Under the pieces are notes generated by a model, which saw only the letters and a list, made by a program, of their open reading frames with translations, did not search any database and had not been told where the DNA came from. Made by a program: the position numbers and the translations under genes. From a virus (lineage: Duplodnaviria > Caudoviricetes): DNA of 64,000 nt. Below, one piece after another: positions 6,534-50,603 of the stretch; within the stretch, counting starts at the first letter, position 1; each line of letters begins with the position of its first letter. The DNA is taken from positions 36,290 through 100,289 of IMG/VR virus record IMGVR_UViG_3300036964_000424; one strand, given 5' to 3'.

Positions 6534-6619
6534 TATCTACATGAAATCAATAACTGAATTGCAACTGCTTTTAGATAATCATATTTATTATAATCATGAT
6601 TATCATAGCACGAGGAAAA

Positions 6620-9271
6620 ATGAATAAAAAAAATTATGCATTCGACATAGAAGTATTCCCTAACTTTTTTTGTGCTACCTTTATGAATGTAGAAGATAGT
6701 GCAGAATATAGTAGTTTTATAATTGCGTGGAAATTGGGAATTGATCAATCGGAAGAAATGAAAGCCTTTGTAGATAGCAATGTATCATCTATGATAGGTT
6801 ATAATAATTTGTATTATGATTATCCTATTCTCGAATCTATATATAATTATAACGGGAAAGATTTAAACAGCGATATATTTAAATTATCTAAAAAAATTAT
6901 AGATGGGGATAGAGGAGAGAATTTCGGGCATAGAAAAAATTATCTTTGGGAACAAATTGACCTAATGAAGATGATGGCTTTCGATAAATTAGGTGTTAGT
7001 TTGAAACAATGCGCAATCAATTTGAAATGGGGAAAAATTCAAGATTTGCCATTAGCCTACGATCATAATGTTAGTAAAGACGAAATAGAAATTATTATAA
7101 AGTACAATATAAATGATGTTTTGATTACACTAGAATTATATAAATCCTTAGCCGAAGAGATTAATTTGCGTAAGGAATTAAGCGAATTATATAAAGTAAA
7201 TTTACTTAGCGCAAGTGATAGTAAAATTGCCAATATATTATTAGAAAAATTTTATACTGAAGATAGCGGGCTAAATATTACCGAACTGAGAAAGCTTAGA
7301 ACGCCTAGAGAATTTCTATGGCTAAAAAATTGTATGTGCGACGGTATTGCGTTTAAAACTAAAAAGCTAAGAGAACTTAAATTAGAATTAGGTAATACCC
7401 TAGTAGTAAAAGAGAATAATTTTGCATATAATAAAACGATAAGCTTTGGATCTAATTATTATGATTTGGGTATTGGGGGATTGCATAGTGTGGATTCACC
7501 TGGGATTTTTGAATCAGATGAAAATTATAGAATAATAGATATAGATTGCCAAAGCTTTTATCCTTCGATCATGATCCAAAATAAAATTAAGCCGGAACAC
7601 TTGGGTGATAATTTTATTAATATTTTGAGAGACATTACAAAACAACGGATTGAAGCAAAAAAAGAAAATAATACAGTAAAGGCGGCAGGTTTAAAAATTG
7701 TTATCAATTCTATTTTTGGAAAATTAGGAAGTGATACCTTTTGGCTATATGATCCCAAGGCGTTTCTTACCGTTACAGTATCGGGGCAATTATTTCTTTT
7801 GATGCTAATTGAAGATTTGGTTCTCCATGGAATAAAAGTTATATCTGCTAATACCGATGGCATTGTTAGCAAAATACCTGCAGATAAATACGAAACCTTT
7901 AAAAAAGTATGCATGGAGTGGGAAACAAAAACAGGATTCGTTTTAGAGGAAACTGAATATAGCAAATATATCAGAAGCGATGTAAATAATTATATTGTTA
8001 AAAAAATAGATGGGCATATAAAAGAAAAAGGTAGATATATGACATCTTTGAATCTAAAAAAAGGATATAAATATCCGGTAGTATCAAAAGCCATGTTTGA
8101 ATATTTTATTAATGATGTACCAATAGAAAATACAATAAAAAACAATACGGATATATTAGATTTTTGCCTGTCTGAAAAAACAGGAAAGGATTTTATTCTA
8201 GAATTTAGAGACGACAATCAAACAATCCCACTTCAAAAAACTAATAGATTCTATATTAGTAACACCGGCGGAACGTTAGTAAAAATTAATACTAATACTG
8301 GGAAAGAAATCGGATTAGCGGTAGGGAAATTATGCAGAATATTAAATGACTATGATCATACTTTAGATTTTTCTGAATATGATGTAAATTATAATTATTA
8401 TATAGAAGAAGCATTAAAATATATAGAATCTATAGAAAATTCCAAAGAAGAAGAATTTTTTGAAATCGAGGAAGAAAGTTCGGAAGAAGAAAGGGATATA
8501 TTTGAAAATATAGAAACAAAAAATATTAATATAGTTCCCCCTAAATTTAGATATTCAACCTATGCTTATAAATTTGATAAAAATAAAAATTGTATTTGGC
8601 GGGGGATTGGATCGCTGAAGTATGTTACTAAAAAAGTGGCAGAAGATTTAGAATCCCTTTCTAGCAAAACATATATAGACTTTATAGATTTTTTGATTGA
8701 TGTAGAGGAAAACACTACTATTAACTCCAAGCAAATGGAAATATTGATAATGCTAGATTTCTTTTCTGAATTTGGGAAAAATGGTAAACTTATGAAAATA
8801 TATGATTTATTTAAAAAGGGAGATAACAAATATACTAAAAGTCTAAAACAAGAAACTAAGAACAACCGCATAGAAGCAATTCGTAAAATTTCCGAAAGCC
8901 TCCCTAATAACCGAGTTTCAGTTATAGACCAAATAAATTTTGATAAATCTTTATTTGGGCAAATACAAACGGTTTATCCTATACAAAAAAATTATGTTTT
9001 AATAACAAGGATTGACACAACTTATTCTCCAAAAGCCACTATATATTGCTTCAATAACGGGAATTATGCTAACTTAAAAGTTAGAAAAGCAATTTTCATG
9101 GGGAAGAAATTTAAGAAAGATGATATTCTGTTTTGTAAAAAGTTTGCCAAAGAGCCTTCTGTAATAAAAGTAAATAATGAATGGGTTAAAACTGGAGGAT
9201 CGGAATTTTGGTTAGTGGATTATGATAAAGTATCCTATGAAGAATTTGACAATATAATATCGAATCTGTAG
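6620..9271 (+). CDS. Family B DNA polymerase (3'-5' exo + pol) with a C-terminal DnaE-like HhH/OB extension
   Basis: Exo motifs FDIE, GYNN..YD, YNINDV; pol motifs DIDCQSFYPS, KIVINSIFGK, SANTDG; after an acidic linker IVPPKFRYS..IWRGIGSLKYV..F.DFL resembles a phage DnaE C-terminus; start chosen from GAGG RBS (track start 6596). Confidence 0.88.
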   Translation: MNKKNYAFDIEVFPNFFCATFMNVEDSAEYSSFIIAWKLGIDQSEEMKAFVDSNVSSMIGYNNLYYDYPILESIYNYNGKDLNSDIFKLSKKIIDGDRGENFGHRKNYLWEQIDLMKMMAFDKLGVSLKQCAINLKWGKIQDLPLAYDHNVSKDEIEIIIKYNINDVLITLELYKSLAEEINLRKELSELYKVNLLSASDSKIANILLEKFYTEDSGLNITELRKLRTPREFLWLKNCMCDGIAFKTKKLRELKLELGNTLVVKENNFAYNKTISFGSNYYDLGIGGLHSVDSPGIFESDENYRIIDIDCQSFYPSIMIQNKIKPEHLGDNFINILRDITKQRIEAKKENNTVKAAGLKIVINSIFGKLGSDTFWLYDPKAFLTVTVSGQLFLLMLIEDLVLHGIKVISANTDGIVSKIPADKYETFKKVCMEWETKTGFVLEETEYSKYIRSDVNNYIVKKIDGHIKEKGRYMTSLNLKKGYKYPVVSKAMFEYFINDVPIENTIKNNTDILDFCLSEKTGKDFILEFRDDNQTIPLQKTNRFYISNTGGTLVKINTNTGKEIGLAVGKLCRILNDYDHTLDFSEYDVNYNYYIEEALKYIESIENSKEEEFFEIEEESSEEERDIFENIETKNINIVPPKFRYSTYAYKFDKNKNCIWRGIGSLKYVTKKVAEDLESLSSKTYIDFIDFLIDVEENTTINSKQMEILIMLDFFSEFGKNGKLMKIYDLFKKGDNKYTKSLKQETKNNRIEAIRKISESLPNNRVSVIDQINFDKSLFGQIQTVYPIQKNYVLITRIDTTYSPKATIYCFNNGNYANLKVRKAIFMGKKFKKDDILFCKKFAKEPSVIKVNNEWVKTGGSEFWLVDYDKVSYEEFDNIISNL

Positions 9272-9295
9272 TATAATAATATAGGAAAAATAATA

Positions 9296-10423
9296 ATGCA
9301 AAAAGGAAATTTAATAAAAGTACCAGTGACAGGGCAAGTTATTGAAGAAGAAGAAGTTGAAGCTTTGAAAAAGGTAGCGGAGAACAAGCAATTTGCTCCT
9401 GCAGAAAAAGTAAAAGAATTTGAGCATAATTTTGCTAGATATGTGGGAAAAAAGCATGGAATATTTGTAAACAGCGGTTCTTCTGCTAATTTATTAGCCG
9501 TAACCGCCTATAAAAAATATACTAATGAATCCTTAGTAACATTGCCCGCACTGATGTTTCCTACTACGCTCAATCCTTATTTGCAAAACAATTATGATGT
9601 TGAATTGATAGACGTTGATATAGAAACCCTACAAGCACAACTTCCCCAAAAGCATGGCGTACATACTTTAGGAAATTATTCTGATATATCTGGAATAGAA
9701 GATTCTTGCGATGCATTATTCCCTGGAAATTATAAAGGCATAATCCAGACATTTTCTTTTTTTCCTGCACATTTTCTGAGCTGTGGAGAAGGTGGAATGG
9801 TTACGACAGACAATGTTGATTTATACAAGCTAATGGTGTCTTTTTCACACTGGGGAAAAGATTGTTTTTGCCCATTAGGATATGATAATGCTTGCGGGAA
9901 AAGATTTGATCAGCAATTTGGCGAAATGCCATATGGATATGATCATAAATACATTTATAGTAATATCGGATATAATTTAGCTGGAACTGAAATGGGAGCG
10001 GCTATAGGGATAGAACAACTAAAAAAACTACCAAGATTTTTAGAAATTAGAAAGCACAACTTTACAAAATTATATCAAGGATTAAATAAATATTCAGATG
10101 TTTTTATTCTGCCTAAAACAGTTTTACCTGCCACTGCTTGGTTTTCGTTTCCTATAACTATTAGAAAAGAAACGAATATACAAAGAAGGGACTTAGTACA
10201 ATTTTTAGATTCTAAAGGGGTTGGATCCCGTCCTATTATGGGTGGTAATTTGAAAAGGCAACCAGCATATTCAAATATTCCATTTATAGTAAAAGAAAGC
10301 CTTCATAATTCTGATTTGATAACTGAAAATTCCTTTTATGTAGGAATATGGCATGGGCTAAAAGATGAACAAATAGAATATACTATTTCGGTTATTTCGG
10401 AGTTTATAGAAAATCGTGCATAA
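9296..10423 (+). CDS. RfbH/AscC-like PMP-dependent NDP-4-keto-6-deoxyhexose 3-dehydrase (DegT/DnrJ family)
   Basis: VNSGSSANL, EDSCDA, SFFPAHFLSCGEGG (His where aminotransferases have Lys), DCFC..DNACGKRF Cys cluster, GYDHKY..GYNL. Confidence 0.88.
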   Translation: MQKGNLIKVPVTGQVIEEEEVEALKKVAENKQFAPAEKVKEFEHNFARYVGKKHGIFVNSGSSANLLAVTAYKKYTNESLVTLPALMFPTTLNPYLQNNYDVELIDVDIETLQAQLPQKHGVHTLGNYSDISGIEDSCDALFPGNYKGIIQTFSFFPAHFLSCGEGGMVTTDNVDLYKLMVSFSHWGKDCFCPLGYDNACGKRFDQQFGEMPYGYDHKYIYSNIGYNLAGTEMGAAIGIEQLKKLPRFLEIRKHNFTKLYQGLNKYSDVFILPKTVLPATAWFSFPITIRKETNIQRRDLVQFLDSKGVGSRPIMGGNLKRQPAYSNIPFIVKESLHNSDLITENSFYVGIWHGLKDEQIEYTISVISEFIENRA

Positions 10424-11111
10424 CATAGTTCTTGGATGTGGCCTTTTAGGCAAAGAAATTGTGAAACAAACCGGATGGGATTGTCTTTCTAGGAAAGAAA
10501 CGCCAGATTTTGATTTCCGCTATTTAAGAACTTACATCAAATATCTTTATGCATACGACATAATTATTAATTGTGTGGCAAATACTAATACTTATAGTGA
10601 TGATAAAATAGCTATGTTAGAAACTAATTTTAAGCCAGTTTGTAAGCTTACAGATTGGTGCGAAAAAAATGGTAAGAAGCTAGTACATATTTCTACAGAT
10701 TACGTATATGCAGGCAGTATTCATCCTTCAAAAGAATCAGATGTTCCAGTTCATGCTCGAACATGGTATGCATATTCTAAATTATTAGCTGATGGATATA
10801 TAGAAAGTTTTTCTACTAATTATTTGATTATTAGAACATCCTTCAAAAGATACCCTTTTCCTTATGAAAAAGCTATAGTGATGCAAAAAGGGAATTTTGA
10901 TTATGTGCCAAGAATAGCTGAAAAAATTATAAATCTTATAAATAAAAATTCCCACGGAATAGTTAATGTGGGGCATATTCCATCTTGGAACATGTATGAA
11001 ATGGCTAAAGAAACAAAGCCAGATATAAAAGTTACAACTGAACTTATAAATAAAAATATGCCAAGAAATATCACAATGGATTTATCCAAAATGAAATCAT
11101 TATTACAATAA
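10416..11111 (+). CDS. RmlD-like NAD(P)-dependent sugar-nucleotide 4-reductase
   Basis: GCGLLG Rossmann motif, INCVA, HISTDYVY, YAYSK (YxxxK). Confidence 0.85.
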   Translation: MHNIVLGCGLLGKEIVKQTGWDCLSRKETPDFDFRYLRTYIKYLYAYDIIINCVANTNTYSDDKIAMLETNFKPVCKLTDWCEKNGKKLVHISTDYVYAGSIHPSKESDVPVHARTWYAYSKLLADGYIESFSTNYLIIRTSFKRYPFPYEKAIVMQKGNFDYVPRIAEKIINLINKNSHGIVNVGHIPSWNMYEMAKETKPDIKVTTELINKNMPRNITMDLSKMKSLLQ

Positions 11112-11127
11112 GAAAAAGGAACTAATA

Positions 11128-11832
11128 ATGCCTAAAATTTCTGTACTTATTCCCGCCTATATAAATAATAAAAAAGAATTAAAATTATTAATCTATAATT
11201 TAAATCAAATTAAATTACAAAAAATGAAAGATTTTGAAGTAATTATATCGGATGATTCGCCATCTAATATTGTAGAAAAATATGTAAAAAATATAAAAGA
11301 CATAGATATTAAATACATAAAAAATAGTGGTAAAAAAGGTATTGGAGGAAATACAAATAATGCCATGCTTCATGCAAGCGGCGATTTATTTCATATATTA
11401 TATCAAGATGATTACTTCTTTAGTGAAAATTCTCTAGATACAATAGTTGAAAATTTTGACTATAATGCTAAATGGATGGTTTCAGCTTATTTCCATACAA
11501 AAAATAGAAATGAGTTTTTCAATTTGCATATACCATCTTGGAATAATGAAATATATATTAGAAATACTATTGGAACGGCATCCTGCCTTACTATTTTAAA
11601 TAAAGATATTATTCTTTTTGATGAAAATTTGAAATGGTTTGTAGATTGCGAATATTATTATAGGCTTTACAAAAAGTGGGGATTGCCTAAAATATTAGAA
11701 GATATTATATTCATACAGTATTTATGGGAAGGGCAAGCTACTAATACTATTACCGAAGATATTGTAAAATATGAAATTGAATATATGAGAATTATGCACG
11801 GAGATCAAACCTATGGTTCTGAAATTATCTGA
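11128..11832 (+). CDS. Glycosyltransferase family 2
   Basis: KISVLIPAY, EVIISDDS, N.G...N.N.AM..A.G, LYQDD, FDENL.WFVDCEYY. Confidence 0.88.
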   Translation: MPKISVLIPAYINNKKELKLLIYNLNQIKLQKMKDFEVIISDDSPSNIVEKYVKNIKDIDIKYIKNSGKKGIGGNTNNAMLHASGDLFHILYQDDYFFSENSLDTIVENFDYNAKWMVSAYFHTKNRNEFFNLHIPSWNNEIYIRNTIGTASCLTILNKDIILFDENLKWFVDCEYYYRLYKKWGLPKILEDIIFIQYLWEGQATNTITEDIVKYEIEYMRIMHGDQTYGSEII

Positions 11833-12460
11833 TATAACGCTAGTCGGAGTAGATTGTACTGATAGAATAATGTCTACTATTGAAGCCATGAACATATCTT
11901 CGCAGGGAATCATATACGGAGAAACAATCTTGTTTTCTCATAAAAAGCCTGCGCTTATGCCAAGCTATTTTAAATTTATAAAGATCCCTAAGATAGAAAA
12001 TATAGATGCATATAGTTATTTCATGTTTAAAGAATTGGGCAATTATATTAATACTACCCATTGCCTTACAGTTCATGATCACGGGTATGTTTTGAATAAA
12101 AATGTATTTGATTATAGCTGGTTGCAATATGATTGGATTGGGGCACCTTGGCCTGTTATAGAAGGCGCATATATAGCGAATAACGGGGAAATAGTCAGGG
12201 TAGGCAATGGCGGGTTTTCTTTACGCAGTTCACGAATTTTAAAATTGCCAATAGAAAAAGGATGGTATTTGCGAGAAGAACAAGGTTGGAAAAATGAAGA
12301 TGGTAATTTTTGTTGCTACTGGCGCAAAGAAATGTTAGAAAATGGGATAAAATATGCACCTATAGAAGTTGCGGCAAAGTTTTCATATGAAAATGATGTG
12401 CCTGAAAATATGCATATAAAAGAGTTCTTTGGGTTTCATAGAAACTATCCAATACGATAA
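11813..12460 (+). CDS. DUF5672-like GT-A fold glycosyltransferase-like protein
   Basis: HCLTVHDHGYV, YDWIGAPW, VGNGGFSLRS, NEDG, A.KFSYE, FGFH. Confidence 0.75.
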   Translation: MVLKLSDITLVGVDCTDRIMSTIEAMNISSQGIIYGETILFSHKKPALMPSYFKFIKIPKIENIDAYSYFMFKELGNYINTTHCLTVHDHGYVLNKNVFDYSWLQYDWIGAPWPVIEGAYIANNGEIVRVGNGGFSLRSSRILKLPIEKGWYLREEQGWKNEDGNFCCYWRKEMLENGIKYAPIEVAAKFSYENDVPENMHIKEFFGFHRNYPIR

Positions 12461-12516
12461 ATATGATTATAATTAGCATTATACTTAGTTAGAAATGAAA
12501 TTGGGAATAATTATCA

Positions 12517-12840
12517 ATGAATGATTTAGAAATATTAGCACGAAAATATGGAACAGATAAAAGAACGAATGATCCAGGCCAAAATATTTATCATGGATAT
12601 ACAGATATATATTATGAAATGTTCAAAGGTATGCGAAATGAAAAATTAAATATTGTGGAAATTGGGGTGCAGAACGGGTATAGCACTTTTATGTTTCGTG
12701 ATTTTTTCCCTAATGCAATGATTTATGGTATCGATACATTCGGGGACATTGGCTGTAAAACAAAAGTTGAAGATATTGAGGGTGATAGAATCAAGATTTT
12801 AGTTGCAGATCAATCAGATGATTTATCTGATATTATATGA
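12517..12840 (+). pseudogene. C-terminally truncated class I SAM-dependent (sugar O-)methyltransferase
   Basis: YGTDK..HGY...Y, VEIGVQNGYS, IYGID, ADQS, then stops before the expected DIIIDDGSH half; followed directly by an unrelated DNA methylase. Confidence 0.7.
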
Positions 12841-12870
12841 ATTGTGCTTAAAAATGGAGGTGAGTTGAAA

Positions 12871-13725
12871 TTGTTACCAAAACATATCGAAAATGTTATA
12901 GTTCCACCAATTAAATGTCAAGGTATAAAAACAAAACTGGTTAATTTTATCGCAAATAATATTGTATGGGATGGCGAAGGTCGTTGGATTGAACCATTTT
13001 TAGGCTCTGGAGTTGTGCTTTTTAATATACAGCCAGAAAGGGCTCTTATTAGTGATAAGAATGAACACATAATTAATTTTTATAGAGGCATTCAATCTGG
13101 ATATATAAACCCAATATCAGCCAGAGAATTTTTAGAATACCATGGTGAAAGGCTCAATAATATTGGTGAGGATTATTATTATCAAATGCGAGATGAATTT
13201 AACGAAACAAAAAATCCGTTGTATTTTTTATTTTTAAGTCGAGCCTGTTTTAATGGTGTTATGAGGTTTAGTAAAAAGGGAAAATTTAATGTGCCATTTT
13301 GTAAAAAGCCTGATAGATTTAGACCCGCTTATGTTACAAAAATTGTTAACCAAATTGAAAAAGTATCGAGAGTAATGTTAGGTCGGGACTGGGTATTTCA
13401 AGCCTGTGATTGGAGAGAAACAATACAGCAAGCGGCTGAAGATGATTTTATTTATATAGACCCCCCATACATAGGACGAAGCACTGGTTATATAGGCGAC
13501 TGGGAACAGAACGAAGCGAACGAATTAGCAGAATATGCAAGAACTTCTCCAGCAGGGTTTGCTCTTTCAATGTGGAAACAAAATAAATACAGGGTAAATA
13601 CACATATTGAAGAAGCATGGGGCGGGTTAGAAATGAGAGAATTTAATCATTTTTACCATGTAGGTTCAAGTGAAGATTTAAGAAATACAATGATTGAAGC
13701 ATTAATTATTAAAGAAGGAATTTAA
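12871..13725 (+). CDS. DNA adenine methyltransferase, Dam/D12 alpha class, M.EcoRV-like
   Basis: VPPIKCQGIKTKLV, EPFLGSG, FNVPFCKKP.RF..AY.TKI.NQ, DPPYIGR, HFYHVG; start from GGAGGT RBS (track start 12844). Confidence 0.9.
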   Translation: MLPKHIENVIVPPIKCQGIKTKLVNFIANNIVWDGEGRWIEPFLGSGVVLFNIQPERALISDKNEHIINFYRGIQSGYINPISAREFLEYHGERLNNIGEDYYYQMRDEFNETKNPLYFLFLSRACFNGVMRFSKKGKFNVPFCKKPDRFRPAYVTKIVNQIEKVSRVMLGRDWVFQACDWRETIQQAAEDDFIYIDPPYIGRSTGYIGDWEQNEANELAEYARTSPAGFALSMWKQNKYRVNTHIEEAWGGLEMREFNHFYHVGSSEDLRNTMIEALIIKEGI

Positions 13726-13728
13726 AGC

Positions 13729-14589
13729 ATGATTAATGTAGACTTAACGGGTAATGTTTCGGATCATATAATAAGATACTGTATTTGCAGAAGTGTTGCT
13801 GAAAAAAATAATTATAAATTGGGGATAAATCCCATTGCAAGCCATGATTATTATGGCGGAAAAGAACAAATGTATTTCTTTTCTGGCATAGATTATGGTG
13901 AATCCATCAATACACCTTATGGTGTTTTGCCTAAAGGAATTGCTAATGTTTGGGAAGAAAAGAGAGAACGGCATGCTGGGTATAATTTTCACCCCTTCCA
14001 GCCTGATATTTTTGATGTTCCTGATAACACAAAATTAGTTATTTACTGTGGACAAGATTCTAACTATTTAATTAAAGAAAAAGTAAAAGAATGGTTGCAA
14101 ATTAAAGAAGAATATATAAAAGACGCTGAAAGATTACTGGATGAAGCGGGAATAGAACTAAATGAAAATATTTGCATTATAAACGCTAGGGGTGGTGAAT
14201 ATAGAGGAGTTCCTTCATTATTTCTCCGGCACGAGTATTGGGAAAATGCCATACAACTAATGAAACAAAAAAATCCTGATATAAAATTTATTGTTGTAAC
14301 TGAAGATTTAGATTTTTACAAACATTATGAACCTTTTAGTGGCTTTCCGATTTATCATTTTGGAACTAACACCGATTATTATATTCTTAATCGTGCTAAA
14401 AATCTAATTGTTTCTAACTCCGGATTTGGAATTTTTCCTGTATGGCTGAACGAAAATAATCCCTATGCAATAGCACCTTATCTGTGGGCTAATCATAATT
14501 TTGGAAAGGAAGAAGAATGGGCAAATTCAAATATGCGAAGTTGGGGGTGTTTCACTTTTATTGACAGAAAGGGGGATATAGTATTATAA
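13729..14589 (+). CDS. GT11-like alpha-1,2-(deoxyhexosyl/fucosyl)transferase
   Basis: N-terminal L.GNVSDH (GxGNQ-like), INARGGEY (HxRRGDY-like), YW..AI..M, FIVVTED, LIVSNSGF..W. Confidence 0.75.
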   Translation: MINVDLTGNVSDHIIRYCICRSVAEKNNYKLGINPIASHDYYGGKEQMYFFSGIDYGESINTPYGVLPKGIANVWEEKRERHAGYNFHPFQPDIFDVPDNTKLVIYCGQDSNYLIKEKVKEWLQIKEEYIKDAERLLDEAGIELNENICIINARGGEYRGVPSLFLRHEYWENAIQLMKQKNPDIKFIVVTEDLDFYKHYEPFSGFPIYHFGTNTDYYILNRAKNLIVSNSGFGIFPVWLNENNPYAIAPYLWANHNFGKEEEWANSNMRSWGCFTFIDRKGDIVL

Positions 14590-14650
14590 TAAAGCATTAT
14601 AAAGCATTCCATTTATGGAGTGAAATAATAACTTAAATTAAAGGAAACTT

Positions 14651-15487
14651 ATGAGAAAAATTTATGATGTACAAACAATATTTAATGAAATGGATTTATG
14701 CTATTTAAGATTTTCCATCTTAGATCCATACGTAGATTATTTTGTAGTAAATGAAGCGACTACAACCTTTTCGGGTAAGCCTAAAAAATTATATTTTCAA
14801 GAAAATATAGATCGATTCAAGAAGTTTGAGCACAAAATTATTTATAATATGTTTGATGAAAATAAACCAGAATGGACACAATGGGATAGAGATTGTATCC
14901 ATAAAAATGCTGCAATGAAAGCACTAGAAAAAAGCAATCTCGATGATGGCGATATTGTTTTTTATTCTGATGCAGATGAAATTTGGAATCCAAAAGCTGT
15001 TGATTTTTCTAATTTTAAAGAAGATATACTTTATATTTTATACCAAAAAACATTTTATTATTATATTAATACAGAATGGTATGACATAAATAATCCTTAT
15101 AAAGATATTTGGAGAGGATCCAAATATAGTTCATATGGTTTGTTAAAACAGCATTCTTTTGATACTTTTAGAGATTGGGGTTCTTATTTTCATCGGGATA
15201 ATCAATATAAAAAAGAATATATTAATAATGGCGGATGGCATTTTTCTTTCTTGGGCGGTGCCAATAATATTAAATTAAAAATAGATAGCTACGGGCATCA
15301 AGAATTTAATTGCCCACCTTTTTTAGACAATATTCAAAATAATATTGATAATCTGAAGGATCCCTTTTTTAGACCATATTATAAAATAAGGGTTATTGAC
15401 CTTGATCCTAACATTTATCCGGCATATTTAATGGATCATCTAGATGAATATGATAAATATATTTATAGGGAAAACAGAAATGAATAA
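14651..15487 (+). CDS. GT17-like N-acetylglucosaminyltransferase
   Basis: IYD...FNE.DL..RF..L..YVDYFVV.E...TFSG.PK, SDADEI, GGWHFSFLG, K..SY.HQE. Confidence 0.85.
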   Translation: MRKIYDVQTIFNEMDLCYLRFSILDPYVDYFVVNEATTTFSGKPKKLYFQENIDRFKKFEHKIIYNMFDENKPEWTQWDRDCIHKNAAMKALEKSNLDDGDIVFYSDADEIWNPKAVDFSNFKEDILYILYQKTFYYYINTEWYDINNPYKDIWRGSKYSSYGLLKQHSFDTFRDWGSYFHRDNQYKKEYINNGGWHFSFLGGANNIKLKIDSYGHQEFNCPPFLDNIQNNIDNLKDPFFRPYYKIRVIDLDPNIYPAYLMDHLDEYDKYIYRENRNE

Positions 15488-16217
15488 TTTTAAAATTCTA
15501 TATCGCATTTCTAGTCAGGGGAATCCGCTAGGTCGCACGGAACTATCAAACACAGAATTGGCAGGTATTACTCGTCAAGATTGTTTTAATAATTTAGTAA
15601 AAGTATTTGGAACTGTTAACTTAATTGTAATTGCGGATAATGCAAACGATGATGTAATTTCTTTTTTGAAATCTAAAGGTATCGATGATATTGAAAGAAC
15701 TAATCTAGGGAATACTAATAGTTTTCGTTATATCTTGCATAAAGCCATTTCCGAATTTGACGATAACGATATTATTTATTTTTTAGAAGATGATTATGTT
15801 CATAATTATGGTGCCGAAAAGATTATAAAAGAGGGAATAGAAATTTCAGATTATCTAACGCTTTATGACAATAAGGACAAATATATCGATACGGATAAAG
15901 GAGGAGACAATCCTTTTGTTTATGGCGGAGGCGAAGATACAAAAGTAATGATTACTAATTCTTGCCATTGGAAAATAACAAACGCATTCACGATGTCTTT
16001 TGCATCTAAAGTAAAAACATTAAAAGAAGATTATGATACAATTATAAAATATTGTCCTCTAAATGCGCCGCATCCAATGGATTTCTTATTATGCCGCGAG
16101 TTGGCTACGCAAAAAAATCGCAAGCTAATTAGCCCTATACCAGGCTATTCTTCCCATATAGGATTAAATATGAGCCCGTTTGTACCATGGGTAAAATTGC
16201 TAAAAGGAGAATTATGA
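15480..16217 (+). CDS. GT-A fold glycosyltransferase (GT2-like)
   Basis: VIADN, LGN..SF, IYFLEDDYVH, SPIPGYSSH; within the GT cluster (track start 15444). Confidence 0.7.
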   Translation: MNNFKILYRISSQGNPLGRTELSNTELAGITRQDCFNNLVKVFGTVNLIVIADNANDDVISFLKSKGIDDIERTNLGNTNSFRYILHKAISEFDDNDIIYFLEDDYVHNYGAEKIIKEGIEISDYLTLYDNKDKYIDTDKGGDNPFVYGGGEDTKVMITNSCHWKITNAFTMSFASKVKTLKEDYDTIIKYCPLNAPHPMDFLLCRELATQKNRKLISPIPGYSSHIGLNMSPFVPWVKLLKGEL

Positions 16218-16288
16218 TTAAAGATATAGCGCAAGATGTACTAATAGTGGAACATAATAAATATATTTATAAGGGGAATAAAAAATGA
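16214..16288 (+). pseudogene. 24-aa mini-ORF, probable deletion remnant
   Basis: AGGAGA RBS, MIKDIAQDVLIVEHNKYIYKGNKK*; overlaps both neighbours by ATGA; its 3' end matches the 3' end of the GT17 gene. Confidence 0.4.
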
Positions 16289-16950
16289 GCAAATTTGAAG
16301 AAATTTTTCCGTTAATTTATGTTATTAATTTGGATTCTCGACCTGATAGGCTCAATGCTAGCATAGAAGAATTCAAAAAAATTGGGCTAACCTCCATCAA
16401 TAGAATGCCAGGGCAAGTATATACCTATGCCCCCGATGCTTATACCAATGGCGCTATTGGTTGTATGCTTTCCCACAAATTTTGTTTAGAAGAAGCATTG
16501 CGGCAAAAGAAAAACGTTTTCATATTTGAAGATGATATAGAATTTTTGCCATATGATAATTTAAATGAAATTATAGATCAATGCTGTGAGGAATTAGAAA
16601 GTATAGACTGGAGCCTAGTATATTTTTCTGGCAACTTACTTAGACCTGCATTTCAAAAAAGTAATCGCTTAGCTAAATTAACTCACGCCCAATCTACAGT
16701 TGCATATGGGGTCAAATATGAATTTATTGAAAAACTATTATCATATTTCCCTACAACTACTTTTACGGAGCCTATAGATATGACTTATGCTAATAGAGTA
16801 ATCCCAGAAAATAACTGCTATATAACTATTCCTATGATTGCAATTCAAAGAAAAGGCTATTCGGATATTGAATGCAAAGAAGTTGATTATAGCCAATATT
16901 TACAAAAGCGATATTGGGAGAATTTGGTATATACCGAAGGGATATTATGA
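16285..16950 (+). CDS. Glycosyltransferase family 25
   Basis: YVINLDSRPDR, GAIGCMLSH, IFEDD, STVAY, PID. Confidence 0.88.
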   Translation: MSKFEEIFPLIYVINLDSRPDRLNASIEEFKKIGLTSINRMPGQVYTYAPDAYTNGAIGCMLSHKFCLEEALRQKKNVFIFEDDIEFLPYDNLNEIIDQCCEELESIDWSLVYFSGNLLRPAFQKSNRLAKLTHAQSTVAYGVKYEFIEKLLSYFPTTTFTEPIDMTYANRVIPENNCYITIPMIAIQRKGYSDIECKEVDYSQYLQKRYWENLVYTEGIL

Positions 16951-17771
16951 AAGATTTCATTACGGTTATATTTTCACGAGACAGGGCATCTCAATGTGAT
17001 TTGCTTTTAAAGTCTATAAATGCATGCACTAAAGAATACATGAATATTCATGTTATTTATACTTGTGATACCGATAGGCATTGGAGATCATACGAGAAAC
17101 TTAAAAATAGGCACGGGGAAGCCAATTTTCACATTGAAACAACCTTTAAATATGATTTAATTTCCCTTATTCGATATTATAAATATGTTCTCTTTATGGT
17201 TGATGACAATATTTGTGTATCTGATTTTAGCATAGAAAAGATTATAGATTTATTAGAAAAAAACAAGACTGCACTTGGGTTTAGTTTGCGGCTAGGAGCT
17301 AATTGCACAGAATGTTATACGCTGTCCTGCAAGCAAGAAATGCCGCCTTCTACCAAAATAGCTGATAATGTATTTATGTATAGCTGGTTTGGTGCGAATG
17401 CAGATTTCGGGTATCCGCTGGAATTATCAAGTTCAATTTATAAGGTATCGGATATTATACCGATATTAATGAACGAAAATTTCTTGAATCCGAATGAATT
17501 AGAATGGAAAATGCAATCTTATAATTATTGGTTTTCTACAAAAAAGCCGCACCTTTTGTTATACCAAACCAGTGCCTGCTTCTGCAATCCAATTAATAAA
17601 ATAAATATTAATAATAATCGAAGCGGGAATAATCCGGAATATTCAATAGAATCACTCTTGACAAAATACGAAAAAGGTGTTATCATTAAATATGATTTCA
17701 AAGGGTTTATTCCCAATGGATGTCATCAAGAAGTAGATATTGAATTTGGGCTTGAGAAAGGTGAAGAATGA
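16947..17771 (+). CDS. GT-A fold glycosyltransferase-like protein
   Basis: IFSRDRASQ.DLLL.S, LFMVDD, FSLRLG.N, FGYPLE, NPN.LE (track start 16914). Confidence 0.65.
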   Translation: MKDFITVIFSRDRASQCDLLLKSINACTKEYMNIHVIYTCDTDRHWRSYEKLKNRHGEANFHIETTFKYDLISLIRYYKYVLFMVDDNICVSDFSIEKIIDLLEKNKTALGFSLRLGANCTECYTLSCKQEMPPSTKIADNVFMYSWFGANADFGYPLELSSSIYKVSDIIPILMNENFLNPNELEWKMQSYNYWFSTKKPHLLLYQTSACFCNPINKININNNRSGNNPEYSIESLLTKYEKGVIIKYDFKGFIPNGCHQEVDIEFGLEKGEE

Positions 17772-18595
17772 GTCAGAAAAATAAATCTACAAAGTTTGTA
17801 AATATTGCTGATCCACTTGTAAGTATTATTACTCCGACGTATAATCGTAGAAATTTACTCAAAAGAACTTTGGATTCTTTAGTAAATCAATCTTATAAAA
17901 ATATAGAAATTTTAGTGATAAATGATTGCGGAGTAAACGTAGAAGATGTTGTGAACGAATTCAAAGATAATAGAATTAGATATTTTCAAAATGATAAAAA
18001 TGTCGGATTGGCCGCGACGAGGAATGTCGGATTGGAAAACATGCGTGGGGATTATTTCTGTTTATGCGACGATGATGATATATATATGAAATATGCTATT
18101 GAAATACGCATGTACCTGATGAAAAAATTAAATGCAGAAGCATCTTATACAAGATCATTATTAGATCATTGGGAAAAAAGGGGGGACGGGTATGTTAGTA
18201 TTGGCAAAACCTTATACTGGAGCAATCCTTATTTCTCGAAGGATTTAATCCTTGTGCAAAATTTATGCCCTTGCTCGAACTCCACCGTCAGTCGAAAGGC
18301 ATGGGAAAGGGCTGGCTGTTATCAGTTCGACAAAAATCTTACCACGACAGAAGATCACGACATGTGGATAGCAATCAGCAGAAAGACAGATTTTCATGAT
18401 TTAGAAATAGTAGATACTGAATGTAGCCGGCGTAATGACAAAACGCAGATGACAAATAATTTAGATTTTTCTAAAAATTGGATTAAAGTATTTAAAAAAT
18501 GGAGGCATACAGCAGAAAATTTAGAATGGGTTACAGAATCTCAAAATAGTATTCTAAGAAGTGTAGGGATCAATCCCGAAGATTATGGCTTGTAA
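17768..18595 (+). CDS. Glycosyltransferase family 2
   Basis: PLVSIITPTYNR, SLVNQSYKNIEILVIND, N.GLAATRN.G, CDDDD, EDHDMW. Confidence 0.92.
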   Translation: MSQKNKSTKFVNIADPLVSIITPTYNRRNLLKRTLDSLVNQSYKNIEILVINDCGVNVEDVVNEFKDNRIRYFQNDKNVGLAATRNVGLENMRGDYFCLCDDDDIYMKYAIEIRMYLMKKLNAEASYTRSLLDHWEKRGDGYVSIGKTLYWSNPYFSKDLILVQNLCPCSNSTVSRKAWERAGCYQFDKNLTTTEDHDMWIAISRKTDFHDLEIVDTECSRRNDKTQMTNNLDFSKNWIKVFKKWRHTAENLEWVTESQNSILRSVGINPEDYGL

Positions 18596-18641: not shown

Positions 18642-19412
18642 TTGCAAATTAATGATAACATTATTATAAAACAAGGTGATTGCTTGGAATTAATGAAAGA
18701 AATTCCAGATAAATCTGTTGATATGATTTTATGTGATTTGCCTTATGAGACGACTGCTTGCAAGTGGGATACAATAATACCTTTTGAACCATTATGGGAA
18801 CAATATAACAGAATTATCAAAGACAATGGTGCTATTGTGTTATTTGGTTCGGAGCCTTTTTCGACAATGTTAAGATATAGCAATTTAAAGATGTATAAAT
18901 ACGATTGGATTTGGGAAAAATCTATCGGAGCCAATCCCTTATTATGTAAAAAACAACCTATGAGATATCACGAAAATATATCCGTTTTTTATAAAAAACA
19001 ATGTGTATATAATCCTCAAATGACAATAGGTAAGATGAGAGATAAAAAACCGAAAACGTGGGGAGATAAGACAGACGAAATATACGGAGGGGCTTTATCC
19101 CGCTTTAATGGAAAAAGTAATATAAATAATTTGTATTATCCGAGAAGTTATCAGTATTTTTCAAACGCTAATCAAAAAGATAGATTACACCCAACCCAAA
19201 AGCCAGTAGAGCTATGCGAATACTTAATCAAAACGTACACAAACGAAGGCGAAACAGTTTTAGATAATTGTGCAGGATCATTTTCGACAGCGATTGCATG
19301 CATAAATACTGGAAGGAGGTTTATTGGATATGAATTAGATGAAAAGTACTTTGAGATTGGTAAAAATAGAATATTAGATCATCTTACTAAAAAGGAAGAA
19401 ATGTTATTTTAA
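18642..19412 (+). CDS. DNA methyltransferase, beta class (paralogue of 97-873)
   Basis: GDCLELM, CDLPY, TTACKWD.IIPF, HPTQKPV, LDNCAGSFST. Confidence 0.9.
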   Translation: MQINDNIIIKQGDCLELMKEIPDKSVDMILCDLPYETTACKWDTIIPFEPLWEQYNRIIKDNGAIVLFGSEPFSTMLRYSNLKMYKYDWIWEKSIGANPLLCKKQPMRYHENISVFYKKQCVYNPQMTIGKMRDKKPKTWGDKTDEIYGGALSRFNGKSNINNLYYPRSYQYFSNANQKDRLHPTQKPVELCEYLIKTYTNEGETVLDNCAGSFSTAIACINTGRRFIGYELDEKYFEIGKNRILDHLTKKEEMLF

Positions 19413-23069: not shown

Positions 23070-23672
23070 TAACTATATGGCGGTCTTATATAGAAATATA
23101 TATGGAAAAATGCTTTAAATTGCGGGAACACCCTTAGAGATTTTATTACCAAATTATTTTGGAAACAAAATAATGGCATTTTTAATTAAAATGGTATGGT
23201 AAAAATATAAAATATTGGGCAATCCGCAGCGAAATCTCTCTGGATAAAAATGGACAAAAATACTAAAGAAGAAATTATAGAAAAATATCTTAGCGGAATA
23301 AGTGCTAATCAAATATGCATTGAAAAAAGTATAAATATAAGTTCCGTTATGTATTTATTAAGAAAAAACAATATACCAATAAGGTCTATATCTGAAAATG
23401 TTAATAATTATTATACAAAAAAGAAAAATTGTATAATTAATTTTGACGAAGAATTAAACGATATATTGTTAGGTAATTTATTGGGCGATGGGAGTATTAG
23501 GTTATCGATGGTTAATTGCATATACACTCATACCGATAAACATTTAGAATATGTGGAATGGATAAAAGATATTTTTAATTTAAGAGAGAGACGTTCAACG
23601 ACTATAATAAGCAAGTCCTATCGGGATTATGGTATAGTCTGGTCTATAACGAAAGTTATAGTTAACACAACG
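23070..23672 (+). ncRNA. Group I self-splicing intron in nrdJ (603 nt)
   Basis: P1 ACCGU/GCGGU with U-G at the splice site; P AAATTGCGGGAA(23117), Q AATCCGCAGC(23221), R GTTCAACGACTATA(23593), S ATGGTATAGTCT(23629); P9 CTATAAC-GAAA-GTTATAG; terminal G 23672; splicing restores YR|DGCRENQVL. Confidence 0.93.
23250..23582 (+). pseudogene. Truncated intron-encoded LAGLIDADG homing endonuclease with N-terminal HTH, in the P6a loop
   Basis: ILLGNLLGDGSI single LAGLIDADG motif; only ~110 aa before the intron core resumes; flanked by TCTCTCT/AGAGAGA P6a stem; no stop codon. Confidence 0.75.
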
Positions 23673-24248
23673 GATGGTTGCCGAGAAAATCAGGTATTAA
23701 CCACAGATGCTACTTATGCGGAAAAAGATGCTAAGCCTAAGCCTAAGTATGATTATATACAGCCAAGGGATAAAGATGATTTGGGGGAAACTTATGGATC
23801 CAATGTGAAGCGTAGAGTCGCCTGTGGGAATTTGTATATAAATATATGCCGAGATAGCGAAGGAGATTTAGTAGAAACCTTTATAAATACCGGAAAGGGG
23901 GGAATTTGTCAATCTAACACTAACGCAATTAGCCGCCTTGTATCTTTAGCATTGCGCAGCGGCGTGAAAGTAGATTCTATTATAGATCAATTAAGCAATA
24001 TTAAATGCCCTGCGTGTACAATACTTAAAGCACAGGGGAAAGAGGTGGAACAATCTTGCCCAGATGCCATAGCAAGGTATTTAAAAGAAAAATACGAACA
24101 AGGGAATATTGTTATAAAAGAAACTAAATCTAAAAGCAAGAAGCCAACCGAAAAAGATAATAAAATGATTTGCCCGAATTGCGGAGAAAAAATGAGACTG
24201 GAATCGGGCTGCATTACTTGTACATGCGGATTTAGCAAATGCGGATAA
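23673..24248 (+). CDS. nrdJ: Class II ribonucleotide reductase, exon 2 (TSCPD-type C-terminal domain and Zn ribbon)
   Basis: DGCRENQVL, CGNLYI.I, SRLVSLALRSGV, SCPDAIA, CPNCG..ESGC..C.CGFSKCG; spliced product 769 aa. Confidence 0.9.
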   Translation, partial: DGCRENQVLTTDATYAEKDAKPKPKYDYIQPRDKDDLGETYGSNVKRRVACGNLYINICRDSEGDLVETFINTGKGGICQSNTNAISRLVSLALRSGVKVDSIIDQLSNIKCPACTILKAQGKEVEQSCPDAIARYLKEKYEQGNIVIKETKSKSKKPTEKDNKMICPNCGEKMRLESGCITCTCGFSKCG

Positions 24249-24904: not shown

Positions 24905-25012
24905 TCAAATTTGCTCCGCCAAAATTGCCAGCACTTCTTCGCGTAAATTTTCAGGCACGTCCTCAATCGTCTTGATGCCCTTTTTGATTAACGCCGCGTA
25001 AATTTTAGCCAT
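24905..25012 (-). CDS. CD1375-like small phage protein (35 aa, below the ORF track cutoff)
   Basis: GGAGGT RBS; MAKIYAALIKKGIKTIEDVPENLREEVLAILAEQI, the Y..LI..G..TI.DVP..LR..V pattern typical after tail-fibre genes. Confidence 0.8.
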   Translation of the reverse strand: MAKIYAALIKKGIKTIEDVPENLREEVLAILAEQI

Positions 25013-25637
25013 TAGACACCTCCAGTCGTAGTTGCATCTGCGCCTCTGCTATGCGCCGTTCTGCGATGGCGAAGTAGGTCGGGTCGATTTCCACGCCGAT
25101 GAAGTTGCGACCAGTTTGAACGCAAGCCACGCCGGTTGTGCCGCTGCCCATGAAGGGGTCAAGGATGGTGTCGCCTTCGTTTGTATAATTTTCTATTGCC
25201 CACCTCATTAGTGATAACGGCTTTTGAGTTGGATGTACTTTCTTTTCTTCCGAATGAAACTCAACCCTACTTTTTCTAAATGCTTTTGTGGATTTATCAA
25301 ACGAAGTCCATGCAAGCTCAGCGTCCGCCCCAGAAAATTTTTGCATCTTATCCCAAATCAACCAGCATCTTGAGTTGTGCAAATAGTCAACAAAGTAATT
25401 TCCACCCCAAATAATCTGATTGTTGCTTACCCTGAATATCTCGCTGAAATATAGTTTTTCTGGTATTGCTAAATCCCATCTATTATCGGTGGTAAATTCA
25501 GTCCTACCGCTTTTGTCTGCCTTGCGGACATCTTCGCCAATCCCATACGGCGGGTCAGTAATCACCGCGTCCACGCTCTTATCAGGCATGGATCGCATAA
25601 CCTCCAAACAATCGCCTAAGTGAAGCTCAACGGTCAT
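25005..25637 (-). CDS. DNA methyltransferase, beta class
   Basis: LGDCLEVM, TDPPYG, IIWGGNYF, HPTQKP, LDPFMGSGTTG; ATG 25637 is coupled to the upstream stop (track start 25694). Confidence 0.92.
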   Translation of the reverse strand: MTVELHLGDCLEVMRSMPDKSVDAVITDPPYGIGEDVRKADKSGRTEFTTDNRWDLAIPEKLYFSEIFRVSNNQIIWGGNYFVDYLHNSRCWLIWDKMQKFSGADAELAWTSFDKSTKAFRKSRVEFHSEEKKVHPTQKPLSLMRWAIENYTNEGDTILDPFMGSGTTGVACVQTGRNFIGVEIDPTYFAIAERRIAEAQMQLRLEVSNG

Positions 25638-25753
25638 AGCGCCGCCTTCCTGTACGCCTTCGCTCGGCAATTTCCAACCCTCACCCACCGCCATTCTAGT
25701 ACGCCTTCCCTATTCTCTAGCACTGTTCCATCGTAAAGTTTGATTGTATACAT
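25634..25753 (-). pseudogene. 39-aa chimeric remnant ORF
   Basis: AGGAG RBS; MYTIKLYDGTVLEN followed by an unrelated REGVLEWRWVRVGNCRAKAYRKAAL*. Confidence 0.45.
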
Positions 25754-47315: not shown

Positions 47316-47893
47316 TATCCAATCCAGTTTGACATAACTACCATATTTCCCCTATAGGGGATATTCCCAGCCATGGAAGTCACCATTTTACAACGAGTAC
47401 TCGCCCTTGAATCAAAATGTAATCTCCCCAAATATCCAATTTCAGCCCCATTAAAAACTTCTATGATTTGCTGTGAAAGCACTTGCAATCTTGATTGATA
47501 ATTACTTAATGCCGATATTGAATAATGGGTATATATTTCAAATCCCATGAATATTCTGCCATAAACATAGTTTATAGGAACTAGCTCAATAGGTGTTATT
47601 CTTAAAATAGAAATCTTTTCGTTTATAGATTGATCCATACCGAAATCAAAGAATATACGAAATCTAGAATAATCAGGATCCAGCTCCCCATTATTAACCA
47701 AATCACCTTTTTCTTTTGCAGTTAAATTGGGATGGGCGCTATCATTTTTATACGCATCTTTATCATTATATTTTAGTAGTTTCCATATTAATTCATTATT
47801 ATCCATCATATATTTTACGCAATTATAAGATATCAAAGGATAATTTTCATATTTATTATAAGAATCTGCCCTAATATCTGTCACATTTACCAC
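47315..47893 (-). CDS. Putative tail terminator/completion protein
   Basis: N.LIWKLLKY...DA; position in the neck module. Confidence 0.55.
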   Translation of the reverse strand: MVNVTDIRADSYNKYENYPLISYNCVKYMMDNNELIWKLLKYNDKDAYKNDSAHPNLTAKEKGDLVNNGELDPDYSRFRIFFDFGMDQSINEKISILRITPIELVPINYVYGRIFMGFEIYTHYSISALSNYQSRLQVLSQQIIEVFNGAEIGYLGRLHFDSRASTRCKMVTSMAGNIPYRGNMVVMSNWIG

Positions 47894-49487: not shown

Positions 49488-50561
49488 TTAATATCTATAA
49501 GGCTTTTCTATTAATTTTTGATATAAGTCAATACGTTCTTGAACATGTAAATCAATATCTTGGGTTAGCGCAAATTTAAAGCCAACATCTTCAGCCTTTT
49601 CCCTATATAATGCAATATTATCTATTACTTCCGAAATAGCATCTTCCCAATTTTCTTTGCCATTTTCTGTAAATTTTCCGTACTCTGCAAGATGATTATA
49701 ATTGGGATAATTGGATGCTATAAAAGGAACACGCAATGCCAAGCATTCTAAAGGCTTGATTTGGCTTCTCCTTTTATCATATTCTCCCGCTAATGGTATT
49801 GTGCATATATCAAGACTTTTTATAAGGGCAGGGTATTGTTCTGATGGCACGAATGCACAAAACATTTTTTTCTTATTAGAAATATCTAATTCATCATATA
49901 TTTTTTTATCCCCAGTAATAAGGATTTTCACATTTGGATATTTCCTGCATATCTTCCTATAAGCCATCATAATCCCAGACCATTCAAAAGAATAACGGTG
50001 CGATAAGCTGCCAGTCCATCCAATCCAAATTTCATCTTTGGAATGCGGGAATAAAGGCTGTGTTACATTTCTATATCGATCCATTGCTAAATGATTATGA
50101 ATTAGGTAAGTATCATTCCACTCAGCCCAATCATCACAAAGAGCTTGTGATACAGTTTGCAATCCTTTTGACATATGAACGCCCCATTCCAATTGAACTT
50201 TAGGGGGAGGGTTAATTTTAATGGTAGATACTTCTCCAGATATATCTTGATGCTTTATTTCTCCAAATTCCCAGAAACTATAAGCCGGATTGTCTTTATT
50301 CAATTTTCTATATGCATCATCGAATATTACGCCTATTGCTTTGCCTCTTACTTTCCAATACATCATCATAGTCAAAGTATCACTGAATAAATTTCTTTCA
50401 ACCATGATTATATCTGCATCTTTGCAAAGTTGCTGAACCTCGGGCGTATTTTTTATGAAGTCGTTTACATGAATGCATTTAGAAGTATGAACACCCGTTT
50501 TATTAATAGCTACAGAAGGATTTATGCAGTTGTGAAAACTGCAATTAAATTCTTGCGGCAT
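49488..50561 (-). CDS. GT-B fold (GT4-like) glycosyltransferase inside the head-neck module
   Basis: IFDD, TVSQAL, IGWTGS.SH, Y...I..LDI...PL...YD..RS.IK.LE..A..VP.IAS; likely start at ATT/ATC 50591/50588. Confidence 0.85.
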   Translation of the reverse strand: MPQEFNCSFHNCINPSVAINKTGVHTSKCIHVNDFIKNTPEVQQLCKDADIIMVERNLFSDTLTMMMYWKVRGKAIGVIFDDAYRKLNKDNPAYSFWEFGEIKHQDISGEVSTIKINPPPKVQLEWGVHMSKGLQTVSQALCDDWAEWNDTYLIHNHLAMDRYRNVTQPLFPHSKDEIWIGWTGSLSHRYSFEWSGIMMAYRKICRKYPNVKILITGDKKIYDELDISNKKKMFCAFVPSEQYPALIKSLDICTIPLAGEYDKRRSQIKPLECLALRVPFIASNYPNYNHLAEYGKFTENGKENWEDAISEVIDNIALYREKAEDVGFKFALTQDIDLHVQERIDLYQKLIEKPYRY

Positions 50562-50603
50562 ATCGGCATATACATAAAGTACAAAGATAATATACCTCCT
50601 ATT

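Follow-up and report, generated by a model that had tools for sequence, protein, structure and literature searches.

A glycosyltransferase island without membrane enzymes in an uncultured siphovirus of low-GC Firmicutes: a candidate system for virion glycosylation

Known glycosylation systems and the phage island

To our knowledge, glycosylated phage particles have been documented so far only for mycobacteriophages, which use a few transferases. In this study, we analyzed a 64,000-nucleotide stretch of phage DNA (the window, comprising bases 36290–100289 of the 100,289-bp IMG/VR record IMGVR_UViG_3300036964_000424, which we labelled G000 and which is rated 73% complete); unless otherwise stated, positions are those of the window. 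Positions 9296–18595 hold twelve plus-strand genes whose ends overlap or almost abut, and this block would be the main part of a glycan-assembly system free of membrane enzymes of its own. The block encodes a homologue of E1, the 3-dehydrase of 3,6-dideoxyhexose synthesis, a short-chain dehydrogenase/reductase (SDR), and a series of glycosyltransferases (GT2a, a DUF5672 protein, GT11, GT17, GTx1, GT25, GTx2 and GT2b; Table 1), seven of which are supported by Pfam or fold and one of which is a probable further member. Together with a GT4 gene in the head operon, the sequences suggest eight or nine soluble glycosyltransferases in the block and about ten in all. To judge from its major capsid and tail proteins, whose closest matches are Enterocloster phage PMBT24 and the Tsamsa and phiCD211 groups, the source is an uncultured large siphovirus of low-GC Firmicutes. 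No near-identical DNA was found among GenBank phages, and literature searches returned no description of the glycan island.

How does this island compare with described systems? According to passages in two later articles (PMC12801897, PMC12619734) that convey the work of Freeman et al. 2023, soluble glycosyltransferases encoded by mycobacteriophages probably act in the cytoplasm, on the subunits of the capsid and the tail tube. Here, too, one transferase gene, GT4, lies in the structural operon. However, we found no sequence relationship between the two systems, and a tblastn search with GT4 gave no match at E 1e-3 in 50,697 GenBank phage records. About ten transferases and a dideoxyhexose pathway stand here against a few genes there, and the candidate sites are internal S-G/A-S motifs, distributed across many virion proteins, in place of C-terminal tails. 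By homology, the present system falls outside the mycobacteriophage glycosylation family, and it may work in a similar way at a far larger scale.

The serine-rich-repeat adhesins of Gram-positive cocci are glycosylated by the GT4 initiator GtfA/GtfB and then by soluble extending transferases, and SdgA/SdgB glycosylate Ser-Asp repeats. The proposed phage system would share with these a cytoplasmic GT4 initiator acting on Ser-x-Ser-type motifs, stepwise extension by soluble GT-A enzymes and the lack of a lipid carrier, and the structures matched by the phage GT4 fold include SdgB. The phage motifs, however, are single and scattered instead of forming long arrays, and the similarity of GT4 is at the level of the fold, with MshA, PimA and BshA scoring higher than SdgB. 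With respect to a GtfB-like partner or an accessory Sec system, no second GT-B-like gene was seen beside GT4 in the relatives, although no search specific to these was made. In giant viruses, host-independent, virus-encoded sets of soluble glycosyltransferases, sugar methyltransferases and rare-sugar pathways decorate virion proteins such as the chlorovirus capsid and the mimivirus fibril. A soluble glycosyltransferase set combined with a rare-sugar pathway is likewise found here, and the GT4 of chlorovirus NY2A is a fold match of the phage GT4 (Z 21.8). The giant viruses differ in their eukaryotic hosts and in their enzyme families and sugars, and the homology is again at the fold level.

The first two genes of the block resemble the CDP-3,6-dideoxyhexose pathway of Yersinia and Salmonella, a clear E1 homologue being followed by a reductase-like SDR, whose gene comes after E1 in all relatives. 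In the alignment with Yersinia E1 (3BCX), a His occupies the position of the Lys that binds pyridoxal phosphate, and all four 2Fe-2S Cys residues (C-x-C-x7-C plus an upstream Cys) are kept: PAH-FLSC-GEGG corresponds to PAH-HITM-GEGG, DCFC...DNAC to DCYC...DNTC, and EDSC to EDCC. The similarity has its limits, in that E1 scores 349.3 bits against the NCBIfam RfbH cut-off of 423, which makes it a homologue rather than an equivalog, and the context is viral and not an O-antigen locus. A relative, G001, carries an RmlC-like epimerase, a nucleotidyltransferase and a 4,6-dehydratase ahead of E1; no gene of these three kinds was found in the whole window record. The block is without an E3 (AscD-type) or ferredoxin-reductase-type gene, and the island genes of relatives that were scanned did not include one either. 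Some E1 homologues are served by general cellular reductases. The pairing of E1 with a reductase-like SDR implies that a nucleoside diphosphate (NDP)-3,6-dideoxyhexose would be made from host-supplied NDP-4-keto-6-deoxyhexose; because the precursor genes and E3 are absent, this branch would rely on host reductases as well.

Part of the block has counterparts in other phages. Genes for E1, DUF5672, GT2a, GT11 and GT17 are adjacent in T4-like cyanophages (S-H68, S-B05, S-B43, RN05-S and RB11-B) and in the 642-kb metagenomic phage LR756502, with identities of 29% for GT17, 26% for GT11, 29% for E1, 37% for DUF5672 and 30% for GT2a. These clusters differ from the present island in lacking GTx2 and GT4, and they show no specific excess of the S[GA]S motif. 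All GenBank phage matches of GTx2, DUF5672 and GT17 were to cyanophages and metagenomic phages. For the carbohydrate clusters of cyanophages, modification of the host surface or of DNA has been guessed (PMC12801897).

Co-occurrence of the island with a serine motif in virion proteins

Which molecules might receive the glycan? The relatives of the phage provide the main evidence. With an alignment of the GTx2 homologues collected (120) as the query, 32 viral loci were retrieved; when single proteins served as the query, the search for related loci yielded at most one fragment, of 5.6 kb. A syntenic island is present in at least 10 related IMG/VR phages, with nearly the same gene order in G001–G006, G008 and several contig fragments, and the relatives' islands are larger (15–20 genes). 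The frequency of S[GA]S was compared with the expectation from shuffling within each protein. Over all open reading frames (ORFs), the motif was present at 3.3x expectation in G000, 2.7x in G001 and 3.4x in G002, the excess being concentrated in structural genes, and at 0.95x in the island-less PMBT24. The enrichment is specific: in the virion proteins of island-bearing phages, SGS reached 6.3x and SAS 2.2x, against 0.74–0.98x for all other S-x-S combinations, and in 62% of the sites the residue two places on from the motif was T, V or I.

The same pattern was found in the 20-kb structural loci of 20 relatives, in which S[GA]S ranged from 2.35x to 4.4x wherever GTx2, GT2b and GT4 were present and from 0.26x to 1.7x in six relatives of 90% completeness or more in which DUF5672, GT4 and GTx2 are all missing. 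A maximum-likelihood tree of the major tail protein falls into two halves with 100/100 support, and the island-bearing G003 lies in the otherwise island-less half. Its tail protein has six motifs, and those of its tree neighbours have 0. G003 is therefore a second, separate case of motif and island occurring together, which brings the number of independent contrasts to about two, still few. G007, G009 and G010 at first appeared to be motif-rich phages without an island; this was rejected, since they lack DUF5672 and yet carry GTx2, GT2b and GT4. The contig of G010 begins inside the island, with GT2b at base 375, and its major tail protein is identical to that of G005 (loci L215 and L121); the two are the same phage type, and the apparent lack of an island in G010 is an assembly break.

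The position of GT4 provides a further connection to the structural genes. In every relative, GT4 is the last gene of the island, directly after the last GT2 gene. In the window it is found on the minus strand, 31 kb from the remaining glycosyltransferase genes of the block and two genes downstream of the major capsid gene, between a capsid-proximal gene of 241 aa and a neck gene of 176 aa; this slot is empty in the island-less PMBT24, and G021 has the same relocation. Nearby in the window are the genes for the major tail protein (45467–46489) and for a neck-region protein of 345 aa (47887–48924).

We consider that these observations suggest, without proving, that the island builds a complex glycan on the phage's own virion proteins; this is the best reading available, it rests on co-occurrence, and in our judgement the chances for and against it are evenly balanced. 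According to this reading, a core trio of GT4, GTx2 and GT2b would attach and start the glycan on Ser within the motif [S/T/I/V]-S-G/A-S-x-[T/V/I] of tail-tube, neck, fibre and decoration proteins, and attachment would take place in the cytoplasm, before or during assembly. The trio is proposed as the core because it is common to all related phages with motif-enriched virion proteins. E1, the SDR, GT2a, DUF5672, GT11, GT17, GTx1 and GT25 would extend and branch the glycan, forming a swappable elaboration module that is found also in cyanophages and the 642-kb phage. The original prediction had likewise proposed a multi-step glycan on virion proteins carrying S-[G/A]-S; enrichment of the motif only where the glycosyltransferases occur agrees with it.

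Several points weigh against virion glycosylation. The link is phyletic, with about two independent contrasts behind it, and the structural models of GT4 and the GT-A enzymes match lipid, small-molecule, teichoic-acid and protein glycosyltransferases equally. Soluble glycosyltransferases are normal in lipid-linked pathways, and tyrosine recombinases are present in these phages. As far as its gene content indicates, the copy in the window is without precursor enzymes or an E3-type reductase, so that its dideoxy branch is predicted to be host-dependent. Finally, in cyanophage S-B05, which has the elaboration sub-module, S[GA]S stands at 1.57, compared with 1.48 and 1.21 in cyanophages without the module. 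The sub-module alone was accordingly rejected as a predictor of the motif; the lack of an excess in S-B05 fits a role of the trio, rather than of the sub-module, in setting the attachment, and it fits the absence of any link equally.

We tentatively propose, with less confidence than an even balance would warrant, that a clade of phages infecting Gram-positive anaerobes has an autonomous two-tier system, in which the trio writes on an S-G-S-x-[T/V/I] sequon across most exposed virion proteins and an exchangeable cassette diversifies the product. The cassette may consist of the 3,6-dideoxyhexose pathway, DUF5672, GT11, GT17 and GT25, together with the methylation and galactofuranose genes of the relatives, and it seems to be passed among phage lineages that are not related, cyanophages and huge phages among them. 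If this were true, the virion glycosylation of these phages would far exceed in complexity any known from bacterial viruses and would compare with that of giant viruses. More generally, if virion glycosylation is correct, bacterial viruses would build complex glycan coats as giant viruses do, by means of a self-contained machinery of 10–20 genes and a candidate sequon. It would bear on phage stability, on interactions with receptors and mucus and on antibody recognition in phage therapy, and glyco-engineering would gain a short peptide tag along with soluble enzymes that need no lipid. The proposal also suggests an explanation, open to testing, for the carbohydrate clusters of marine cyanophages, which have long been unexplained; these phages are in culture and accessible to direct study. 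New in this study are the anatomy of the island, its reduced state, the relocated GT4, the division into core trio and elaboration genes, the connection to cyanophages and a huge phage, and the contrast provided by G003.

Other possible acceptors of the glycan

What else could the island modify? The original prediction had noted that the gene block has no flippase, Wzy, undecaprenyl-phosphate transferase or obvious membrane protein; our searches likewise show no flippase, polymerase, priming transferase or polytopic membrane protein in the phage and its relatives. No 19-residue Kyte-Doolittle window exceeded 1.4 in the ORFs of the block, so that no transmembrane (TM) helix is predicted. No multi-pass membrane protein was found in the relatives' islands, where three ORFs score a single hydrophobic window, and no ORF with at least four predicted TM segments was found in the whole of G000, G001 or G002 (of which G002 has terminal repeats and is complete) or in the islands of nine relatives. 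From the missing helices the prediction had gone on to a cytoplasmic acceptor. This step is weak, because the glycosyltransferases of O-antigen, capsule and teichoic-acid synthesis are also soluble and act on lipid-linked acceptors with host membrane steps. The soluble enzymes might extend or modify a lipid-linked polymer of the host (wall teichoic acid, secondary cell-wall polysaccharide, capsule or the precursor of an S-layer glycan) at the inner face of the membrane, using the priming and export of the host, with lysogenic conversion or a block to superinfection as the outcome. We regard such envelope remodelling as unlikely, although much is consistent with it. The action of soluble GT-A and GT4 enzymes on lipid-linked acceptors is standard biology, 3,6-dideoxyhexoses are classic surface-antigen sugars, and the grouping of NDP-sugar synthesis genes with several soluble glycosyltransferases in one operon is as in lipid-linked polysaccharide pathways. 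The top Foldseek match of GTx2 is TarP, a teichoic-acid glycosyltransferase of prophage origin, and the matches of GT4 include TarM. In bacteria, the GTx2 and GT2b pair is the only part of the island that recurs (47 of 80 loci), and in Geomonas the pair is embedded in a 3045-aa multi-glycosyltransferase protein of a kind typical of polysaccharide synthesis. Each genome has two tyrosine recombinases, with which a temperate life style and surface conversion would be compatible; in G000 they lie upstream of the window (G000:C1:1747-2286 and 29840-30298), two are likewise found in G001, G002, G004 and G005, and one of those in G002 (85170–85667) adjoins the island at its GT4 end. A search for a large serine recombinase found none. 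Because of the tyrosine recombinases, life style cannot serve as an argument against conversion. Converting phages, however, usually bring at least one membrane component, and neither the 15–20-gene islands of the relatives nor the genomes scanned whole contain a priming transferase, flippase, ABC exporter, polymerase or ligase, for which host enzymes could substitute. The island, moreover, is not a separate moron: it lies in the replication-side region, co-oriented with the polymerase and helicase genes. Phages that infect cyanobacteria, hosts with a very different envelope, have its sub-module too, and remodelling of the envelope would leave unexplained both the co-occurrence with the motif and the place of GT4 among the head genes.

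Assembly of an oligosaccharide on modified bases in the phage DNA, as a protection against restriction, is far less probable. Phage glycosyltransferases are known to make DNA glycans, and here the island lies between the DNA polymerase gene and those for a deoxynucleoside monophosphate (dNMP) kinase, a 5′-nucleotidase and ribonucleotide reductase, with a Dam gene embedded in it and a divergent ThyX-like gene without the RHR motif 8 kb upstream. However, no gene of the ThyA family (PF00303), to which the dCMP and dUMP hydroxymethylases belong, was found in G000 or in G001–G005, three of these five relatives being rated 100% complete, and control genomes were matched by the same search. The ThyX-like protein (960–1523) scores 27.8 bits, just above the cut-off, and has T-Y-R in place of R-H-R, so that it may not be a thymidylate synthase. 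Its gene is present in G001 and G002 and absent from PMBT24 and from G007, G009 and G010, which keep glycosyltransferases; the idea that it is the partner of a hidden hydroxymethylase was rejected for this lack of co-occurrence. In G007 and G009, the island is not beside the polymerase, and the nucleotidase and kinase genes are far from the glycosyltransferase genes; this non-conserved position argues against a replication-linked role. Even the island-less PMBT24 has a dNMP kinase. The window has no hydroxymethylase and has four DNA methylases, as had been stated before (97–873, the Dam gene of the block, 18642–19412 and 25005–25694), and the presence of at least four N6/N4 methylases speaks for ordinary bases; a glycan requiring ten transferases and a dideoxyhexose would also go far beyond any known on DNA. 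A DNA acceptor is unlikely, then, because ThyA is missing, the ThyX-like gene does not co-occur and the island is not tied to the polymerase. It is also improbable, to a lesser degree, that the island acts on some other acceptor or makes another product (a non-virion protein, a free glycolipid or an oligosaccharide), or that it is decaying in this phage. The best structural matches of GT4, MshA, PimA and BshA, do act on small or lipid acceptors, and this copy has lost several genes, contains a truncated methyltransferase and has received the Dam gene. Nevertheless, all ten glycosyltransferase frames and that of E1 are open, with conserved motifs and 35–76% identity to the relatives, the block enzymes look intact, and the motif excess in this phage (3.3x) is as strong as in relatives with full islands.

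Anatomy of the island and its surroundings

The features of the block and the relocated GT4 gene are listed in Table 1. The eleven genes named in the original prediction are all present as placed and on the plus strand, and, GTx1 apart, their families were confirmed by database matches, homologues or fold; the D12-class Dam gene within the block had been passed over. Of the two genes described there simply as GT-A, that for GTx2 has the fold according to AlphaFold2 and Foldseek, with its start at 16947 and not, as had been given, at 16914; for GTx1, the assignment comes from an E-D-D motif and a GT2 lead in the Atlas. The overlapping stop and start codons that had been described were located at five junctions (10416/10423, 11813/11832, 15480/15487, 16947/16950 and 17768/17771). 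A loss of catalytic residues, which would have spoken against the proposed activities, was not seen: E1 and the SDR keep their motifs, as do the five GT-A-type enzymes inspected (GT2a, GT17, GTx1, GTx2 and GT2b) their DD or DxD-type motifs.

Table 1. Features of the glycan block and the relocated GT4 gene (positions in the window)
Feature	Position	Strand	Basis and remarks
Sigma-70-like promoter match, TTGACA-17-TAGTAT	9246..9274	+	Just 5′ of the first gene; consensus scan only
E1/RfbH-type, pyridoxamine-phosphate-dependent NDP-4-keto-6-deoxyhexose 3-dehydrase with 2Fe-2S ligands (predicted)	9296..10423	+	DegT/RfbH-like; NCBIfam RfbH E 2.6e-104; 3BCX E 2.3e-75
Short SDR, 231 aa, candidate 4-ketoreductase	10416..11111	+	RmlD_sub_bind E 3.8e-13; GxGxxG and YxxxK
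GT2a, GT2 glycosyltransferase	11128..11832	+	E 2.2e-14; DDS and QDD motifs
DUF5672 protein, presumed glycosyltransferase	11813..12460	+	E 2.9e-19; beside E1 in cyanophages too
S-adenosylmethionine-dependent methyltransferase, 5′ half of gene, 107 aa	12517..12840	+	Full-length homologues 212–217 aa
D12-class Dam DNA methylase, not a glycan gene	12844..13725	+	E 2.7e-36
GT11-like glycosyltransferase	13729..14589	+	32.8 bits vs cut-off 23.9; phrog_2644; 42–68% identity in relatives
Perfect 12/12 sigma-70 consensus, TTGACA-18-TATAAT	14561..14590	+	Consensus match only
GT17-like glycosyltransferase	14651..15487	+	E 6.5e-27; D-A-D motif
GTx1, viral family without Pfam model, probable GT-A	15480..16217	+	Invariant E-D-D; Atlas GT2 lead
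GT25 glycosyltransferase	16285..16950	+	E 3.7e-11; phrog_2835
GTx2, GT-A fold, without Pfam model	16947..17771	+	AlphaFold2 and Foldseek; invariant D86-D87
GT2b, GT2 glycosyltransferase	17768..18595	+	E 1.5e-27; pairs with GTx2 in bacteria too
GT4 (GT-B fold), retaining-type	49488..50591	-	64% identity to the G001 island gene; model

Comparison of gene content indicates that the island in the window is a reduced copy, from which precursor and tailoring genes have been lost, which has gained a Dam cassette and whose GT4 has moved to the late operon. The genes present in relatives and absent here encode the nucleotidyltransferase, the 4,6-dehydratase, the RmlC-like epimerase, DUF3431, radical-SAM and FkbM proteins; relatives other than G001 add DUF3431, radical-SAM, FkbM and other methyltransferases, UDP-galactopyranose mutase and several homing endonucleases. 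The truncation of the methyltransferase, already recognized in the original prediction, is clear from its length (Table 1), and the fragment is probably inactive. The start of the Dam gene follows the stop codon of the fragment by 4 nt, and the corresponding slot in the relatives is occupied by DUF3431, radical-SAM and methyltransferase genes or by HNH and GIY-YIG homing endonucleases. The segment 12517–13725 therefore looks like a cassette replacement within the island.

The start of the relocated GT4 gene (50586–50600, minus strand) would be ATT or ATC, 3–6 nt after a perfect AGGAGG; there is no ATG, GTG or TTG at the start position of the homologues, and the conserved first strand, VLYVYAD, follows in frame behind the ATT/ATC codons. 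This arrangement suggests a non-canonical start, possibly of low efficiency. The AlphaFold2 model of GT4 (predicted local distance difference test score, pLDDT, 91) gave matches to the GT4-family fold, the best being MshA (Z 26.7), PimA and BshA, with SdgB and TarM also among them. The GTx2 model (pLDDT 93.4) has a GT-A domain, and its Foldseek neighbours are TarP at the top, POMGnT1, GnT-I and SpsA. Both searches returned generic GT-A or GT4 neighbours, which do not discriminate the acceptor, and sequence searches of the PDB with GTx1, GTx2, DUF5672 and GT4 gave nothing significant. The Atlas clusters of GTx1 are viral, one related cluster having GT2 in 30% of its members, which is a lead only.

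The perfect sigma-70 consensus in the table sits in the final codons of GT11, 60 nt 5′ of the GT17 start, and may be an internal promoter dividing the island into two units; sigma-70-like sites are no more numerous here than expected from shuffled sequence. The block is preceded by the polymerase gene (6596–9271) and followed by genes for an N6/N4 methylase, an NT5C nucleotidase, a dNMP kinase and ribonucleotide reductase. In Geomonas edaphica Red53 (L068, 9983–19120), the 3045-aa ORF combines a GTx2-like N-terminal domain with TPR repeats and with further transferase domains, six of GT2 and two of GT4; this giant soluble multi-transferase adjoins a fusion of a glycosyltransferase with a methyltransferase. 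Downstream of the block in the window, an ORF at 23250–24248 joins the remnant of a LAGLIDADG endonuclease to the TSCPD domain of ribonucleotide reductase.

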